A program made the position numbers and the translations under genes. DNA of 34,643 nucleotides from Brachybacterium sp. (GTDB lineage Bacteria; Actinomycetota; Actinomycetes; Actinomycetales; Dermabacteraceae): the NCBI GenBank assembly GCA_030451965.1, contig JAKDNE010000001.1, positions 1 to 34,643 on the forward strand. The letters run 5' to 3'. How positions within the stretch are numbered: position 1 is the stretch's first letter; every line of letters starts with the position of its first letter. Of this stretch, positions 2,107 through 9,648 are shown one piece after another. The notes below the pieces were generated by a model, which worked only from the letters and a program-made list of their open reading frames with translations, made no database searches and was not told the origin of the DNA.

Positions 2107-2928
2107 TCAGTCCTCGGTTCCGCGCGTGCTGCGATCCAGCACCTCGCCCAGCAGCTCCCGCAGATCCGTCGCGGACTGCTCGCTCACGGTCGCCTCGGAC
2201 TCGCCCTCCTCAGGCGTGTCCATCGCGTACACGGCGCCGGAGGTCGCGAAGATCGTGGCCTGGCTCGCCTCGGTCGCGCTGACGGCGGTGAGGACCGAGA
2301 GGGTGCGGGTGTCCGCAAGCGTCTCGGCGAGCTCCCCCTCGGCCGAGTCCAGCTCGGCGATCGGGGCGGTCACGGACTGCCCGCCCTCGTCCCCGGCGAG
2401 GCCGTCGGGGTCGATGAAGCGTGCCAGCCGCTCGAGGGCAGCGGTGCGCGTCGGCACCGAGAACCGGTGGAAGCCGTCAGCGGAGACGAACTCCTCCAGC
2501 ACTCCCCCGTCGTCCTCCACATGCAGCACCAGGCGAGTCATCTGTTCGGCGACCTGACGGGTCACGTGCACGACCGCGCTCGCGGTGGATCGCAGCATGA
2601 ACAGCCCGGCGATCGGGCGGTCGATCTGCATCGCCCGGTCCTGCGCATCACCGATGACGACCTCTCCCTCGTTCTCCATCGCCTCGTCCACGGTCACGAC
2701 CAGTCCTCGGGCGATGAGCGAACGCAGCGCCGCCGAGGCGTGCGCGGACTCGTCGACGCCCTCCTGGTCGAGGTAGGGGCTGCCGGTGAGGGAGAGCGTG
2801 TCGCGACCGGCGAGCGCGACGATCTCCTCATCGGTGAGGACGATCAGCAGCTCCGGCTCGTCGGAGGCGGAGGCGAGGAGCTCCATGGCTCCTGCGGCAT
2901 CCCGCTCGGTCACGGTAGGGGTGGTCAT
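2107..2928 (-). CDS. Hypothetical acidic protein (273 aa), possible EspG-like partner/chaperone of the upstream WXG100 protein
   Basis: GAGGAG RBS before ATG 2928; coding-like composition; LTDEEIVAL / PYL / ALRSLIARGLV segments; directly downstream of the WXG100-domain gene. EspG likeness is an inference. Confidence 0.7.
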   Translation of the reverse strand: MTTPTVTERDAAGAMELLASASDEPELLIVLTDEEIVALAGRDTLSLTGSPYLDQEGVDESAHASAALRSLIARGLVVTVDEAMENEGEVVIGDAQDRAMQIDRPIAGLFMLRSTASAVVHVTRQVAEQMTRLVLHVEDDGGVLEEFVSADGFHRFSVPTRTAALERLARFIDPDGLAGDEGGQSVTAPIAELDSAEGELAETLADTRTLSVLTAVSATEASQATIFATSGAVYAMDTPEEGESEATVSEQSATDLRELLGEVLDRSTRGTED

Positions 2929-3030
2929 CGAGAGCTCCTCGGGCCTGCGGGCTGGATGGTCATGAAGCGCTCACCGCATGCACGGGGCGGCGCCCAGGCT
3001 AGTCGACGGCGGCATGTCCACGGGACCGGG

Positions 3031-4086
3031 TCACCACCCGAAGCCGAGGGCGTCGCCGATCGCACCGCCGACGTCCTTGATGGCGTCCCCGGCGGACTCC
3101 ATCCCGTCCCCGATCGACTCCGCGGCGCTCGAGGCGGCATCCGAGACGGTGTCCGTGACCGTGCTCGCCACGTTCGAGATGCCCTGGCCCACGTCGCCCG
3201 CGAAGTCCGCGATCGCCTCACGGTTGTCCCAGGCCATCTTGCCCAGGTCCATGCCGATGGACACCACGCCGGCTGCGAGCCCGACCCCGGCCACGATCGG
3301 CGCGGCCGGGCCGAACAGCGGAGCCGCGAGGACCAGACCACCGCCGACGGCGGACAGGCCACCGCTGGCCTTGTCGAAGGTCGTCTCGCCGTTCATCATC
3401 TGATGCACGCCCAGCCCGATGTCCAGTCCGGGGACCAGCTTCCCGCCGAGCTTGCCGAGCTTCCCGAGCTTCGGTGCGGCATTGTCGAGCCACGAGGGGA
3501 ACTTCCCTTCGTCGAGGTGCTTCTTCAGCGGATCCCAATTCCCGAGGGAGTCCGGGAGCCCGGCCTTGTCCAGGAGCTGCTTCGCGATGGAGGAGTACTC
3601 CTCGCCGCCGTTCAGGCCCTTACCCAACCCCCTGGCCAGCTCGTCCTTGTAGTGGCTCCAGAGCTTGCCCGGACCCCCCTGGAACGCGGCCTTCCATTCC
3701 TTCATGTGCTGGGGGAAGTCGTCGATGAGCTTCTTGAACTTCTTGAACGACGTGAAGATGTCCTGCCCCGCCTTGGCCAGACCGAAGGTGTTCTCAAGTG
3801 GCCCCGGCCCCTGCTCCACCTCCGAGGCCGTGTCCTGCTGCTCGGCCTCCTCGTCGAGCGACGTCCCCTGGGCCTCGATCGTGCTGATCTGCTCGTCGAG
3901 CCTCGGCGCCAGATCGCTGCGCCAGCGTTCCCGGAAGGTCTCGGCGTCCTCGCCCTCCCACTCCGCGCCGTAGGCGACCAGCATCGAGATCCGGGTCCGG
4001 ATGCCGTCCAGGGTGTTCGCGCGATCGCGCATCAGCTCCGCGTGCTCGCGGAGCTGCTCCGTATCCGCTCCCTGAAATCCGGTCAT
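3031..4086 (-). CDS. WXG100-domain protein (type VII secretion substrate-like) with Gly-rich hydrophobic C-terminal region
   Basis: N-terminal ~90 aa helical hairpin (GADTEQLR...W43-E-G45-DAETFRERW...AEQQDTAS); GGGAGA RBS; C-terminal Gly/Ala hydrophobic hairpin and 11-residue repeats. Confidence 0.82.
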   Translation of the reverse strand: MTGFQGADTEQLREHAELMRDRANTLDGIRTRISMLVAYGAEWEGEDAETFRERWRSDLAPRLDEQISTIEAQGTSLDEEAEQQDTASEVEQGPGPLENTFGLAKAGQDIFTSFKKFKKLIDDFPQHMKEWKAAFQGGPGKLWSHYKDELARGLGKGLNGGEEYSSIAKQLLDKAGLPDSLGNWDPLKKHLDEGKFPSWLDNAAPKLGKLGKLGGKLVPGLDIGLGVHQMMNGETTFDKASGGLSAVGGGLVLAAPLFGPAAPIVAGVGLAAGVVSIGMDLGKMAWDNREAIADFAGDVGQGISNVASTVTDTVSDAASSAAESIGDGMESAGDAIKDVGGAIGDALGFGW

Positions 4087-4190
4087 CGTTCTTCTCCCCC
4101 GTGGTCTTCCGCCCCGTGCCGCGTCCTCAGCGGACCGAGGGGCGCTCGTCGTCTGCGACGCTCACGCTATGCGGATGCACCCGACAAGGC

Positions 4191-4210
4191 GATGGGGACA
4201 ACTCCCCATC
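4191..4210. promoter_or_regulatory. Perfect 8-4-8 inverted repeat GATGGGGA-caac-TCCCCATC in the divergent WXG100/PH intergenic region (candidate operator)
   Basis: Read directly; lies between a minus-strand TAGCGT (4164-4169) and a plus-strand TACGAT (4215-4220). Confidence 0.5.
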
Positions 4211-4226
4211 CCCCTACGATGGCGAC

Positions 4227-5132
4227 ATGCCATACGGAACGAGCCTTGCCCAAAAGAGCCTCGCTCGGGCTCTGGCCACCACCACGACCCATCGCCGGCT
4301 GATGATGCCCGAGGACCTCGCCGACCACCTCCTCGCCCCCGACGACGAGGTTCTCATCGCCCTGCCCAGCATCCCGGACAACAAGCCACGGATCGTCATG
4401 GTCACGCGCGAGGAGGTGATCCTCGGACAGTGGAGTGCAGCAGGGTACTCGCCGAAGGACATCACACAGAAGCGCGCGATCCCAGGCCGCGACGTGCGCG
4501 GAGCCTCGTACAGTCCTGGGCTCTACCACGATGTAGAGATCAAAGTGCGTTCCGCCCGGGACCTGTCGATCCAGCCGTGCACGGTCGAGGACGGGATCCG
4601 CTTCGCGCACGCGCTCCAGGCCCTCGCCACGACCGGACGGGTCCCTCCACCGCTACCACCTGCGGACGTGGTCGCAGCACGGCATGCGCAGGGGAACTAC
4701 TCCCCGGACTCCCTCGAGAACCGGATGCGCGCCGTGTGGGATCGGGCGCTCCTGGCCACCACTGCTCTGTGGAACTGCGAAGAGGTCCATTCGGGGCCCG
4801 CGCTCGGCTGGCTGTACCCCGGGGAGCAGGCGCTGCTGGTCCTCCTCGGTCAGACAGGCGTCAGCACCGAGTACCTCGCGGTCACCGATCGAAGGGTCCT
4901 GCGGGGCAGCGCCCCGGGAGCGCGGGTGAAGGAGCGGCCCGCCGCCGACGTGCGCGACGCAGTGTTCGACGAAGGACGCTTCAAGGACGCGGTGAGGATC
5001 GAGATGCATGACGGCTCGTCCCTGAAGCTCGACGGCGGCATCCACCCGCTCGAGGGTCGGGAGTTCGTCGATGCCCTGAACGCCCTCATCGCGACCGGTT
5101 CGCTCCCGACGGAGCTGCTGCCCTTCCGCTGA
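4227..5132 (+). CDS. Hypothetical protein with two tandem bacterial PH-like domains
   Basis: ATG 4227 follows TACGAT-N6. The halves align: LAPDDEVL/LYPGEQAL, VMVTREEVILG/LAVTDRRVLRG, DVRGASYSPG/DVRDAVFDEG, FAHALQALATTG/FVDALNALIATG. The LxxxExxL...L.vTd.Rv pattern is typical of bPH domains. Confidence 0.72.
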   Translation: MPYGTSLAQKSLARALATTTTHRRLMMPEDLADHLLAPDDEVLIALPSIPDNKPRIVMVTREEVILGQWSAAGYSPKDITQKRAIPGRDVRGASYSPGLYHDVEIKVRSARDLSIQPCTVEDGIRFAHALQALATTGRVPPPLPPADVVAARHAQGNYSPDSLENRMRAVWDRALLATTALWNCEEVHSGPALGWLYPGEQALLVLLGQTGVSTEYLAVTDRRVLRGSAPGARVKERPAADVRDAVFDEGRFKDAVRIEMHDGSSLKLDGGIHPLEGREFVDALNALIATGSLPTELLPFR

Positions 5133-5227
5133 GGTCCCGGGAGCGCTGCCCGGGTCGGGGCGCGCGCATGTCCAGCACCCGGCGGACGGACAGGCTCGGC
5201 CGGTCCCCGGACCGTTACGATTGCCGC

Positions 5228-7363
5228 ATGCCCCCAGATTCCTCAGCGCTGCGAGATCTTGCCCGCGACCTCGGCGTCAGCACCCAGTACTGGGGGTGGG
5301 ACGGTGCGCTCAAGGACGTCGCCGATGACACCCTCCACGCGATCCTCGCCGCGCTCGGTGCGCCGGTGACCTCCGAGCAGGACATCACGGCAGTGCGGCG
5401 CGAGCGCGAACGGGCTCCCTGGGCCCGCACGCTGCCACCGGTGACGGTGCTGCGCGAGGACGCCGCCACCACGGTGCCCGTCCATGTCGACCACGGCACC
5501 ACGGTCCGGGCCCACCTGCTGTTCGAGGACGGCGACCGCCGGGACCTCGCGCAGGCCGAGGACCACACCGCCCCGTTCGATCTGGACGGCACCCTGCGCG
5601 GCCGGGCCCGCTTCCACCTGCCCGCCGGACTGCCGCTGGGCTGGCACCGGCTGATCGCGGAGACCGCACAGGGTCAGTCCGAGGCAGACGTGGTGGTGAC
5701 CCCGGCGCGGGTGAGAGTCCACGAGGAGTACGCCGCGAAGCGGGCCTTCGGGCTCCAGGCGCAGCTCTATTCGGTCCGCTCACAGCGCTCCTGGGGCATC
5801 GGCGACCTCGCCGACATGCGCGATCTCGCCGCCATCAGCGGTGCTCGTCACGGCGCGGACTTCCTGCTGGTCAACCCACTGCACGCTTCCTACCCGACAC
5901 CACCGGTGGAGCCCTCCCCGTATCTCCCGGTCACGCGCCGCTTCACCAGTGCGCTGTACCTGCGCATCGAGGACGTGCCCGAGTACCGCGAACTCGCCGA
6001 CTGCTCCCGCCAGCGGGTGGGGCTCCTGCGCGCGCGGGTGTCCGGCTGGAACGACCGTGTGGACCGCCTCGAGCGCGACGAGGTGCTGGCGGCGAAGCTC
6101 CAGGCTCTCGAGGAGCTGTTCGCGGTGCCGCTGACCGCGGGGCGCAGGGCGCTGCTGGACGCCTACCGCGCCCGTGAGGGACAGGGCCTGGAGGACTTCG
6201 CCCTGTGGTCCGCGATCGCGGAGTCGGTGCGCGGCACGGCCGATGAGGCCTGCCTGCAGGACCTCGACCAGGCCACCCTCGAGCAGGCCCGTCGCGAGCT
6301 GGCCTCGCGGATCGACTTCCAGATCTGGACGCAGTGGCTGCTCGACGAGCAGATGAGTGCCGCCCAGGCCGCGGCCCGCGATGCCGGGATGCGGATCGGG
6401 ATCATGCACGACCTCGCCGTCGGGGTGGAGCAGATCGGTGCGGATTCCTGGCGGCTGCGTGAGGTCCTCGCCGACGGTGTCGCCGTCGGTGCTCCGGCCG
6501 ATCAGTACAACCAGCAGGGCCAGAACTGGCACCAGCCACCGTGGCATCCCGACCATCTGCGCGAGGCCTCCTACCGGCCCTGGCGGGACATGCTGCGCAC
6601 GCTCATGCGCCATGCCGGAGCGCTGCGCATCGACCATGTGCTGGGGCTGTTCCGGCTGTGGTGGATCCCGGAGGGTCACGAGGCGGCCGACGGCGCCTAC
6701 GTCTCCTACGACCACGAGGCGATGATCGGCATCCTCGTCCTGGAGGCGCAGCGCTCGGGCACCCTGGTGGTCGGCGAGGACCTCGGCACCTTCGAGCCGT
6801 GGGTGCGCGACTACCTCGTGGATCGCGGGATACTGGGCACCTCGATCCTCTGGTTCGAGTACGACGGCGAGGGTGACCCGCTGCCGGCGGAGGACTACCG
6901 GGCTCTGTGCATGGCCTCGGTCAACACCCATGACCTGCCGCCCACGGCGGGCTACCTGGCAGGTGACCACGTGGCTCTGCGCCACGAGCTGGGTCTGCTG
7001 GAGCGGGACCTCGACGAGGAGCTCGAGGCCGATGCCGCCGGGCGCGAGCTGGTGCTCGACGGGCGGCGCCGCGAAGGCCTGCTGGCCGCCCGCGGCGAGG
7101 GCGGGTCGGACATCGAGCAGACGGTGCTCGCCCTGCACCGCCACCTGGCGCGCACCCCGTCGATGCTGCTGGGCGTCTCCCTCGTGGACTGCGTGGGCGA
7201 GCGGCGCATCCAGAACCAGCCGGGCACTGACGAGGAGTACCCGAACTGGCGGATCCCGCTGGCGGATGCCGCCGGCGCCCCGGTCTCGATCGACGACATC
7301 GCGACCGACGAACGCACCGCGCGCCTGCTGGCCGCGGTGCGCGAGGGCATGAGCCGGGGCTGA
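5228..7363 (+). CDS. malQ: 4-alpha-glucanotransferase (amylomaltase, GH77)
   Basis: QLYSVRS..SWGIGD, NPLH, PSPY.P.TRRF, HDLAVG, LRIDH, GEDLG, THDLP and NQPGT..YPNW motifs. ATG 5228 follows TACGAT-N6. Confidence 0.95.
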   Translation: MPPDSSALRDLARDLGVSTQYWGWDGALKDVADDTLHAILAALGAPVTSEQDITAVRRERERAPWARTLPPVTVLREDAATTVPVHVDHGTTVRAHLLFEDGDRRDLAQAEDHTAPFDLDGTLRGRARFHLPAGLPLGWHRLIAETAQGQSEADVVVTPARVRVHEEYAAKRAFGLQAQLYSVRSQRSWGIGDLADMRDLAAISGARHGADFLLVNPLHASYPTPPVEPSPYLPVTRRFTSALYLRIEDVPEYRELADCSRQRVGLLRARVSGWNDRVDRLERDEVLAAKLQALEELFAVPLTAGRRALLDAYRAREGQGLEDFALWSAIAESVRGTADEACLQDLDQATLEQARRELASRIDFQIWTQWLLDEQMSAAQAAARDAGMRIGIMHDLAVGVEQIGADSWRLREVLADGVAVGAPADQYNQQGQNWHQPPWHPDHLREASYRPWRDMLRTLMRHAGALRIDHVLGLFRLWWIPEGHEAADGAYVSYDHEAMIGILVLEAQRSGTLVVGEDLGTFEPWVRDYLVDRGILGTSILWFEYDGEGDPLPAEDYRALCMASVNTHDLPPTAGYLAGDHVALRHELGLLERDLDEELEADAAGRELVLDGRRREGLLAARGEGGSDIEQTVLALHRHLARTPSMLLGVSLVDCVGERRIQNQPGTDEEYPNWRIPLADAAGAPVSIDDIATDERTARLLAAVREGMSRG

Positions 7364-7948: not shown

Positions 7949-8494
7949 TCAGCGGCTGGAGCGGGCAGTGCGTCCGCGCACGACGCCGACGAACTCCTGG
8001 CGCAGCGGATCGTCCGCATCCCGCGGCCAGGCCAGGGCGATGCGGGTGGGCTCGCCCTCTGCCAGCGGGCGTGAGACGGCGTCCTTGCGGTGGTGGAGCC
8101 GGGCGAGCGAGAGCGGCACCCGGGTGAAGCCGGCGCCGGTGGCGGCGACCGCGATCCGCTCGGCGGCGTCATCGGCATGGGTGGCGGGGATCTCGGTCTC
8201 CCCCTCCAGATCGTCCGGGTCGATCTCGTCGAGCAGGCTCAGCGCATTCTCGGTGCCCACCACGATCGCGGCCCGTTCCTGCCACAGCGGCACCAGGTGC
8301 AGTTCGTCGGAGGTCAGCGGCAGGCGCACGAAGCACATGTCGACCTCTCCGGCGCTCAGCGCCTCGTGCTGGCGCGAGAGCGGGATCGGGATCAGCTCGA
8401 GCCAGGCCCCGCGACGACCCGACTTCCAGCGGCGCAGGAAGCGATCAGGCTCGACGCCGGGGACGAAGCCGACGCGCAACGTGGTGGGATGCAT
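7949..8494 (-). CDS. Stand-alone LysR-type substrate-binding domain protein (no HTH)
   Basis: LRVGFVPGV...W...D.CFVRLP...VAATGAG...VPLSLAR...IALAW...FVGVVRGRTARSSR; begins directly at the effector domain; TAGGCT-N6-ATG. Confidence 0.85.
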   Translation of the reverse strand: MHPTTLRVGFVPGVEPDRFLRRWKSGRRGAWLELIPIPLSRQHEALSAGEVDMCFVRLPLTSDELHLVPLWQERAAIVVGTENALSLLDEIDPDDLEGETEIPATHADDAAERIAVAATGAGFTRVPLSLARLHHRKDAVSRPLAEGEPTRIALAWPRDADDPLRQEFVGVVRGRTARSSR

Positions 8495-8939: not shown

Positions 8940-9482
8940 TCACACGGTGCTGCGAGCCGTGAGCTCCTGCTCGAGCCAGGAGCACAGTGCGGGCTTCGAG
9001 ACCGCGAGCCCGTTCGGGGCCCACAGCACGTGCTGTCGGGTTCCGTCCTCCAGCTCCTGCTCCGCCACGGTGTGGCCGGCGGCGGCCTGGCGCTCGGCCT
9101 CCTGCTCCGAGACGACGATCTCGATGAACACGTTCGAGTTCTGCTTCACCGCATGCACGTCGATGATCTCGGTCCACGGGACCGTGCCGGCCTTCGCCGT
9201 CGACATCGCGATGCCCTCGGTGGAGATCTCCAGCGCCGCGGTGCGCCGGAAGAGTCGACGGACCATTGCGATCGCGCCGCCCAGGAACAGGAGGACCGCG
9301 AGGACCCCGACGAGCGCCGTCAGGATGCCCCCAGCGGCGATCATCAGCAGCCCGATGAGTGCGAAGACCACGAAGAGGAAGATGAACAGGACGGTCTTGC
9401 CGCGCGAGAAGCGGAAGGGGACGGTCCAGCCGTGCCGGAGAGCCTCGGCCCATGCGTCGACATCGTTCTTCGGGGTATTCAT
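8940..9482 (-). CDS. Membrane protein with two N-terminal TM helices and a PH-like cytoplasmic domain (STM3941-family-like)
   Basis: GAGGAGGA RBS before ATG 9482; two hydrophobic stretches, then ALEISTEGI...GTVPWTEI. Confidence 0.7.
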   Translation of the reverse strand: MNTPKNDVDAWAEALRHGWTVPFRFSRGKTVLFIFLFVVFALIGLLMIAAGGILTALVGVLAVLLFLGGAIAMVRRLFRRTAALEISTEGIAMSTAKAGTVPWTEIIDVHAVKQNSNVFIEIVVSEQEAERQAAAGHTVAEQELEDGTRQHVLWAPNGLAVSKPALCSWLEQELTARSTV

Positions 9483-9532
9483 GCTGGTCCTCCTCGGGGA
9501 TGCGCAGACGTGACCCGCACGGGCCCCGACAT

Positions 9533-9567
9533 GGAAGAACCCCCTGATCGTGAAGCTGACCAGGGGG
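9533..9567 (-). terminator. Intrinsic terminator-like hairpin downstream of tRNA-Ala
   Basis: Minus strand CCCCCTGGTC-agcttcac-GATCAGGGGG followed by TTCTT. Confidence 0.6.
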
Positions 9568-9575
9568 AACTGAAG

Positions 9576-9648
9576 TGGAGCTACGGGGATTCGAACCCCG
9601 GACCTTCTCATTGCGAACGAGACGCGCTACCAACTGCGCCATAGCCCC
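9576..9648 (-). tRNA. tRNA-Ala (anticodon CGC), CCA not encoded
   Basis: GGGGCTATGGCGCAGTTGGTAGCGCGTCTCGTTCGCAATGAGAAGGTCCGGGGTTCGAATCCCCGTAGCTCCA: cloverleaf, G3:U70, GTTCGAAT T-loop, CGC anticodon. Confidence 0.97.

Follow-up and report, generated by a model that had tools for sequence, protein, structure and literature searches.

What is the function of the three genes that are inserted between pmt (439-2055) and malQ (5168-7363) in a Brachybacterium genome, and do they form one unit? The locus lies in a DNA stretch of 34,643 nucleotides, here called the window, of one contig (JAKDNE010000001.1) from the fragmented 3.27-Mb assembly of Brachybacterium sp. A preliminary description had presented the genes as a T7SS (type VII secretion system) satellite cassette, i.e., an effector, a chaperone and an immunity protein or adaptor. 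Sequence comparison and structure models make it rather probable that the genes are a mobile cassette located away from its secretion machine, comprising a putative Esx-exported membrane-damaging effector, a chaperone of EspG fold and a cytoplasmic antidote, which would be co-switched via a palindrome. The genes and sites were assigned as follows.

3031-4086, minus strand: putative effector of 351 aa, WXG100-led (W43-E-G45), with hairpin, acidic linker, amphipathic helices, hydrophobic hairpin and acidic tail
3814-4062, minus strand: WXG100 hairpin, effector residues 9-91, from the model and aligned rows
3238-3381, minus strand: hydrophobic small-residue helical hairpin, effector residues 236-283, maximum KD19 1.92
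2107-2928, minus strand: acidic protein of 273 aa with an EspG fold predicted by structure comparison, likely the dedicated chaperone
4227-5132, plus strand: PH-like protein of 301 aa, a soluble tandem of ~140-aa bPH_3-like domains, putative cytoplasmic immunity protein
4192-4209, no strand: palindrome of 18 bp, ATGGGGA-CAAC-TCCCCAT, at which an activator of an Esx regulon likely binds, from intergenic alignment and genome scans
4164-4169, minus strand: -10-like hexamer TAGCGT, separated from the palindrome by exactly 22 nt and oriented towards the effector-chaperone genes
4215-4220, plus strand: -10-like hexamer TACGAT, 6 nt ahead of the ATG of the PH gene, which would give a separate leaderless transcript

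The G+C content at third codon positions (GC3) was coding-type (0.84-0.92) in all three genes, and their placement between pmt and malQ was as the preliminary description had it. A 742-aa open reading frame (ORF) overlying the cassette on the plus strand showed GC3 of 0.69, which is not coding-type, and was rejected as a shadow ORF. The PH gene likely starts at ATG 4227, as its homologues begin there, and exactly 140 bp then separate the divergent starts, in agreement with the approximately 140 bp claimed. FtsK, Esx and mycosin families were not found among the 37 other window ORFs scanned, and genome-wide FtsK and WXG100 searches gave no further match inside the window; the reported absence of an EccC/FtsK ATPase, a mycosin and a small Esx pair from the window was upheld. 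An EccC-type gene with multiple FtsK domains, followed by small WXG100 genes, was located outside the window.

The 351-aa protein carries the WXG100-type N-terminus that had been noticed. In the structure model, residues 9-91 formed a confident two-helix hairpin, i.e., helices 9-39 and 46-91 with a predicted local distance difference test (pLDDT) of 85-97. It superposed on EsxA with TM(target) of 0.78 and root-mean-square deviation (rmsd) of 2.0, the E-value of this match being weak (0.2). W43 and G45 were each conserved in 76 of 77 aligned rows, and D/E85 in all 77. The C-terminal export signal of WXG100 proteins is YxxxD/E; at the equivalent place A81-x3-D85 was conserved and the Tyr was absent. 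The Pfam WXG100 score (PF06013) was 19.2 bits, under the gathering cut-off of 27.3, and a precomputed PF06013 match existed for 9 of 52 effector homologues. The leader matched four other WXG-type ORFs of the same genome, core Esx genes included (E 3e-9 to 2e-8). Behind it, basic amphipathic helices (residues 100-175), a hydrophobic hairpin rich in G/A/S (residues 236-283) and a terminal acidic amphipathic tail were recognized in the sequence. A hydrophobic segment of membrane length (KD19 >=1.6) was present in 73 of 77 rows, and profile scans found no enzyme domain in the effector. The protein is very probably a T7SS substrate with a dedicated chaperone, and probably, with less confidence, a membrane-active toxin. 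All named homologues of effector and chaperone were from Brachybacterium. The hydrophobic C-terminus of the upstream gene is kept in other families, where the leader may be longer and a small partner gene may be present. A subfamily at L100, L103, L104 and L105 has a convergent effector and EspG-like gene and a different effector C-terminus.

The 273-aa partner is co-oriented and acidic (pI 4.1), as described. No Pfam match was obtained for the protein or its family, and PF14011 had no match in the genome and matched 0 of 44 family members. The structure model reached a pLDDT of 93.8, and the Foldseek rows listed with E <=1e-3 were all EspG structures. In fold comparison, only EspG1, 3 and 5 matched the model with any strength (Z 15.2/14.3/13.2 over 212-222 residues, rmsd 4.1-5.3); the next match was at Z 5.4. 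By prediction the protein has the EspG fold, and the earlier guess of an EspG-like chaperone was confirmed at the fold level.

The EspG-like family comprised 482 representatives at 50% identity. It was found in 50 of 55 Brachybacterium genomes, with 1-5 copies, and in 35 of 301 genomes of the order. In a first survey, an effector homologue stood directly upstream of the EspG-like gene in 28 of the 29 best non-self loci. Genus-wide, a co-oriented EspG-like gene lay <=400 bp downstream for 61 of 63 full-length effector matches, a count that is partly circular, as 39 of 77 effector-profile rows came from loci fetched around EspG-like genes; the two misses were a contig end and a 402-bp gap. Among the matches listed, other WXG-led proteins had an EspG-like gene within 1.8 kb in 6 of 70 cases, all convergent, and 144 further matches lay outside this count. 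The effector-chaperone pair was directly behind eccC in two genomes, G088 and G189. Complex prediction of effector and chaperone scored 0.00, i.e., gave no answer. The 273-aa protein is likely the dedicated chaperone of the effector. Two other gene groups were observed. In many Brachybacterium genomes, a solo EspG-like paralogue (L077, L079, L081, L083 and others) with no effector and no palindrome has been retained close to pxpA-like, NUDIX and thiamine genes. A second family of ~270 aa (L229:2102-2995 and L240:3139-3960) lies behind a palindrome and directly ahead of WXG-led proteins that have lipoproteins after them, and possibly represents a further class of EspG-like chaperone.

The three genes co-occurred widely in the neighbourhood survey of other genomes. 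The cassette occupied the pmt-malQ gap in its own genome and in four relatives. In 19 further genomes chosen from 58 pmt rows, pmt and malQ were adjacent in 18, and a fused relic was present in one; in this relic (G065, L186:1995-2342), the 3' end of the chaperone gene abuts the 3' end of the PH gene between pmt and malQ. In eight more genomes the gap was empty and a paralogous cassette lay at a distance of three genes, and in others the cassette was elsewhere. The same clades were recovered in the effector, chaperone and PH trees of 23 cassettes. Pairwise identities among the effector C-terminal half, chaperone and PH protein correlated with rho of 0.80-0.89, versus ~0.3 against the leader and -0.10 to 0.11 against host genes, over 228 non-independent pairs. 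The chaperone tracked the effector C-terminal half (rho 0.80-0.84) and not the leader (0.30). Mean pairwise identity was 0.35 for PH, 0.34 for the effector variable part and 0.48 for the chaperone. The three genes move as one unit.

When ten intergenic regions were aligned, the palindrome ATGGGGA-N4-TCCCCAT was conserved, though the proteins share only 30-40%. A matrix from these regions gave 17 genome sites at score >=18, versus 0 and 1 in two simulated genomes. TAnnnT followed at exactly 22 nt in 9 of the 18 sites of this genome and in 55 of the 67 from relatives; the next commonest offset was seen 6 times. A site was within 400 bp of 6 of the 9 WXG-led ORFs of the genome; of the other three, two are cut off by a contig end where the complete relative G003 has a site, and one has none. 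Of 38 paralogue loci, all 22 that have a WXG gene carry the palindrome, and none of the 16 lacking one does. Scanning with only the DNA pattern returned at least 124 stretches, and 79 of the 80 fetched were from Actinomycetota. By our own tally, 48 of 80 distinct sites, and 35 of the 59 outside Brachybacterium, had a WXG100 or T7SS-signal profile match in one of the two nearest downstream ORFs; many sites were, by eye, just after eccC-like genes. The pattern occurred in 50 of 301 genomes of the order with zero control matches, and outside the order the palindrome alone occurred in 5 of 186 genomes versus 3 for the control. The motif also uncovered a WXG-led gene on contig C251 that protein searches had not listed. 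Judged from these sequence patterns, the palindrome is very likely an Esx regulatory site. Further sites precede lipoproteins and small membrane proteins. Sites before non-WXG genes were noted at G000:C509:4358, C192:1636, C282:3967, C22:827 and C84:1217; the genes behind them encode a conserved ~165-aa protein, a ~87-aa membrane protein and several lipoproteins, and the first two recur in relatives.

A sigma-70 scan found no promoter, as is expected if an activator replaces the -35 element. Class II activators occupy sites whose near edge is at about -35. As the candidate activator, a 236-aa FHA-like protein was considered, the gene of which, found ahead of eccC, is present in 114 of 301 order genomes. 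All 50 motif genomes carry this gene, and none of the other 187 genomes has the motif. The C-terminus is nearly invariant and looks like a helix-turn-helix by eye; tests were not confirmatory. Profiles gave FHA at E 0.15 in 1 of 5 and HTH_50 at E 0.012 in 1 of 7 fragments, and searches of PDB sequences and of the NCBIfam EspM model gave no match to the protein. A LuxR-type helix-turn-helix was not supported over shuffles (hhalign score 15.1 versus shuffled maximum 18.8). The FHA-like protein is a candidate palindrome binder, at somewhat less than an even chance.

The alternative that survives best, itself rather unlikely, is that the palindrome is an RNA hairpin or repeat and not a protein site, or is bound by another regulator. 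The palindrome can fold as a 7-bp stem, the helix-turn-helix of the candidate was not confirmed, and the co-occurrence of gene and motif may reflect the whole Esx locus, the exact pattern being absent from 64 of the 114 genomes with the FHA-like gene. However, the palindrome lies upstream of the inferred transcript at a fixed 22 nt from TAnnnT and tolerates unpaired variants, which fits DNA binding.

The two-domain build that had been described was borne out: the divergent protein is a tandem duplication, its halves being 29% identical (E 1e-6). The bPH_3 match (PF14470) was below the cut-off for this protein (E 0.02), and 7 of 20 family rows matched (best 6.9e-8). Atlas similarity to bPH clusters was 0.91-0.93, and PDB sequence searches with the family gave no match. 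The tandem form was present in 7 of 55 genomes; elsewhere a single domain of ~135 aa was found. PH loci were within 3 kb of an EspG-like gene in 44 of 60 cases, on the opposite strand every time. Of the remaining 16, four were near contig ends and the others were orphans, including one four-domain array. Several loci hold 2-4 copies. Among 38 hand-picked Brachybacterium effector loci, 23 had the PH gene alone, 13 a gene with two transmembrane segments (2-TM) alone, none both and two neither, the 2-TM profile being built from nine such genes. The PH and 2-TM families showed no detectable relationship (probability 0.04). The PH gene diverges in step with the effector, copies occur in arrays and as orphans, and it and the 2-TM gene replace each other between loci, a behaviour shown by immunity genes; the PH protein is a putative antidote, an assignment that this indirect pattern slightly favours. 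A minus-strand gene at 8940-9611, beside tRNA-Ala (9575-9648), encodes a protein of 223 aa that has a hydrophobic stretch at its N-terminus and matches DUF6585 weakly (E 0.014). DUF6585 also weakly matches one 2-TM partner (L155), and this gene is possibly an orphan immunity gene at a tRNA site.

The PH gene could instead be a co-inherited receptor, regulator or passenger, with the chaperone alone protecting the producer and the effector-chaperone pair as described above. This is improbable. The protein has no membrane segment (maximum KD19 1.22), its gene lies on the opposite strand in every case and has a putative promoter of its own, and linkage alone could make the trees congruent. Against this, the PH gene and the 2-TM gene never share a locus, PH proteins diverge as fast as the effector variable part and faster than the chaperone, and PH copies flank the pair on either side.

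The type VII machinery is encoded elsewhere in the genome. Contigs C471 and C122 hold an FHA/RDD gene, phosphatase, kinase, the FHA-like gene, eccC, a WXG100 gene and a DcrB-like gene, and C296 holds a WXG gene pair. In G003 the same genes are contiguous with genes of a 2084-aa Ig/fn3 surface protein, MoxR and DUF58, and the kinase, phosphatase and FHA proteins are beside eccC. Contigs C56, C251, C67, C423 and C201 carry further WXG-led genes with different C-termini and lipoprotein or membrane gene neighbours; the C56 protein resembles by eye the calpain-like type of L148.

These Esr-type genes beside eccC suggest another target, i.e., the effector may be exported as a defence against Saccharibacteria-type epibionts, like AesB, and not as a weapon against relatives. 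The available parts of PMC13622651 ascribe the induction of Esx and of dispersed substrates in Schaalia to Esr, and describe AesB as a protein with a Gly-rich region and a charged tail. This explanation is unlikely. The AesB tail is described there as disordered and dependent on AesA, whereas the effector here has a hydrophobic helical hairpin and an EspG-fold partner, and the PH gene, in behaving like an immunity gene, suggests that kin are the targets. No orthologues of esrA, moxR or DUF58 turned up in the fragmented own assembly, in which kinase, phosphatase, FHA and eccC genes are present. Least probable of all is a non-toxic PE/PPE-like envelope or translocation component with the PH protein as an adaptor: the known EspG clients are PE/PPE proteins (PMC10765036, in its available part) and the hydrophobic hairpin is conserved across families, not swapped like a toxin domain, but the cassette is patchy, occurs at several sites, is lost cleanly or as a relic, has a history uncoupled from that of its host, and its partner genes form arrays and orphans.

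The proposed mobile effector-chaperone-antidote cassette also has to be weighed against several observations besides the circular count mentioned above. Congruent trees can arise by co-inheritance without binding, and kin are not independent. In the sample, 25 Brachybacterium EspG-like copies had no co-oriented effector in the profile test and 16 loci lacked any WXG gene; persistence of the chaperone on its own is thus possible. The effector's C-terminal half modelled poorly (pLDDT<50), and the canonical GxxxGxxxG is absent from its hydrophobic segment and present in 6 of 77 rows; 72 of 77 agree with a looser G/A/S pattern, but G/A/S residues already make up 47% of the segment. Neither a small WXG100 partner gene nor a membrane immunity gene is adjacent at this locus, and a soluble PH protein is an odd defence against a pore-former acting from outside. 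The candidate activator is missing from 12 of the 35 genomes that have the EspG-like family. EccB and EccD over the cut-off were found in none of five genomes (G003, G019, G006, G200 and G000) and EccC scored under the NCBIfam cut-offs. What stood of the preliminary description is the effector-chaperone reading, through the folds, the EccC gene and the co-occurrence, and toxicity, secretion and immunity are proposals.

If the cassette acts as we propose, an activator dimer would bind the palindrome, centred near -43.5, and drive the effector-chaperone operon. The EspG-fold protein would shield the hydrophobic C-terminal half of the effector in the cytoplasm and target it to EccC, and the WXG leader would pair with a small Esx protein encoded at the core locus. 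Once exported, the effector would insert its amphipathic helices and hydrophobic hairpin in the membrane of a neighbour and depolarise it. The PH protein, made from its own promoter, would bind the toxic part on the cytoplasmic side. The weakest step is the FHA-like gene beside eccC as candidate activator and link to Esr threat sensing. A wider reading, tentative and doubtful, is that the FHA-like protein binds the palindrome and activates, as the Esr output, an order-wide conflict regulon made up of Esx core genes, dispersed effectors and immunity proteins, the cassette being the commonest Brachybacterium payload, i.e., EspG-chaperoned single-hairpin membrane toxins neutralised by PH domains.

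Esx effectors of monoderm actinobacteria are barely characterised, and a specific operator of fixed geometry with a candidate binder bears on how Esr changes transcription. The motif is a tool that finds, from DNA sequence only, Esx substrates and immunity genes that Pfam misses. The cassette adds a third setting for chaperones of the EspG fold and suggests what bacterial PH domains may do. If the wider reading is true, the palindrome would be the missing transcriptional output of Esr threat sensing, and bacterial PH domains would gain a first antitoxin role. Elsewhere in the window, a stand-alone LysR substrate-binding domain without DNA-binding domain (7949-8494, minus strand) is conserved beside luxS.

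Among known systems, EspM, an FHA and helix-turn-helix regulator, is said to be a repressor of whiB6. Like the candidate activator, it has an FHA-like N-terminus and a gene beside an Esx locus, in its case ESX-1 (PMC7002343, available part); unlike EspM, the FHA-like protein has no match to the EspM model or confirmed helix-turn-helix, and the site geometry suggests an activator of many promoters. The Esr-Esx system of Schaalia odontolytica is similar in its core locus, i.e., Ig-repeat surface protein, MoxR, kinase, phosphatase, FHA proteins and EccC, and in its dispersed, co-induced substrates. The available passages of PMC13622651, a 2026 preprint on this system, name no operator or transcription factor, present the Esr effect on transcription as an open question and have EspG only in the references. 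Those of PMC13444075, a survey of actinomycete T7SS toxins with tap-like partners, do not describe the cassette. A literature search for cassette or motif found no paper, its coverage being thin for subscription journals; supplements of these two papers may list related loci.

The mycobacterial EspG1/3/5, which act with PE-PPE proteins, share the predicted fold over most of the chain. Unlike them, the 273-aa protein has 9-16% identity and no PF14011 match, occurs as one copy per effector and not per machine, and tracks the effector C-terminal half. EsxX is a glycine-zipper LXG toxin, and reportedly TelE is another. EsxX and TelE have a similar small-residue hydrophobic C-terminal segment; the leader here is WXG100 and not LXG, and the cassette effectors mostly lack the canonical GxxxGxxxG. 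EsxX, according to the available text of PMC12744356, needs a soluble cytoplasmic immunity pair and has both soluble and membrane immunity, parallel to the alternation of PH and 2-TM genes; membrane immunity genes occur there as orphans, and the term PH is absent from that text.

The closest likeness is YfjABCD of B. subtilis, in which a T7SS-linked protein that has a Gly-rich hydrophobic hairpin and lacks enzymatic domains stands directly ahead of a protein with the EspG fold but no similarity to EspG in sequence. This likeness to YfjB/C was set by description, with an Atlas similarity of 0.86-0.88 to a YfjC cluster as a lead only. In contrast, the cassette is mobile and multi-copy, its leader consists of one WXG100 hairpin, no WXG partner is adjacent, and its third gene encodes a divergent soluble PH protein and not a membrane antitoxin. 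An adjacent WXG100 partner and a membrane antitoxin, neither of which is at this locus, both occur in loci of other families. On sequence or gene content, the cassette falls outside the EspG, glycine-zipper and Yfj families in the strict sense. YfjB toxicity needs the EspG-like YfjC, according to the available part of 10.1101/2023.08.02.551746. With this described analogue, the cassette is not as novel as first proposed, and the shared palindrome, absent from the preliminary description, is the more novel part. By analogy, the cassette would work like YfjB/YfjC, i.e., as a hydrophobic T7SS protein that is toxic only with its EspG-like neighbour.

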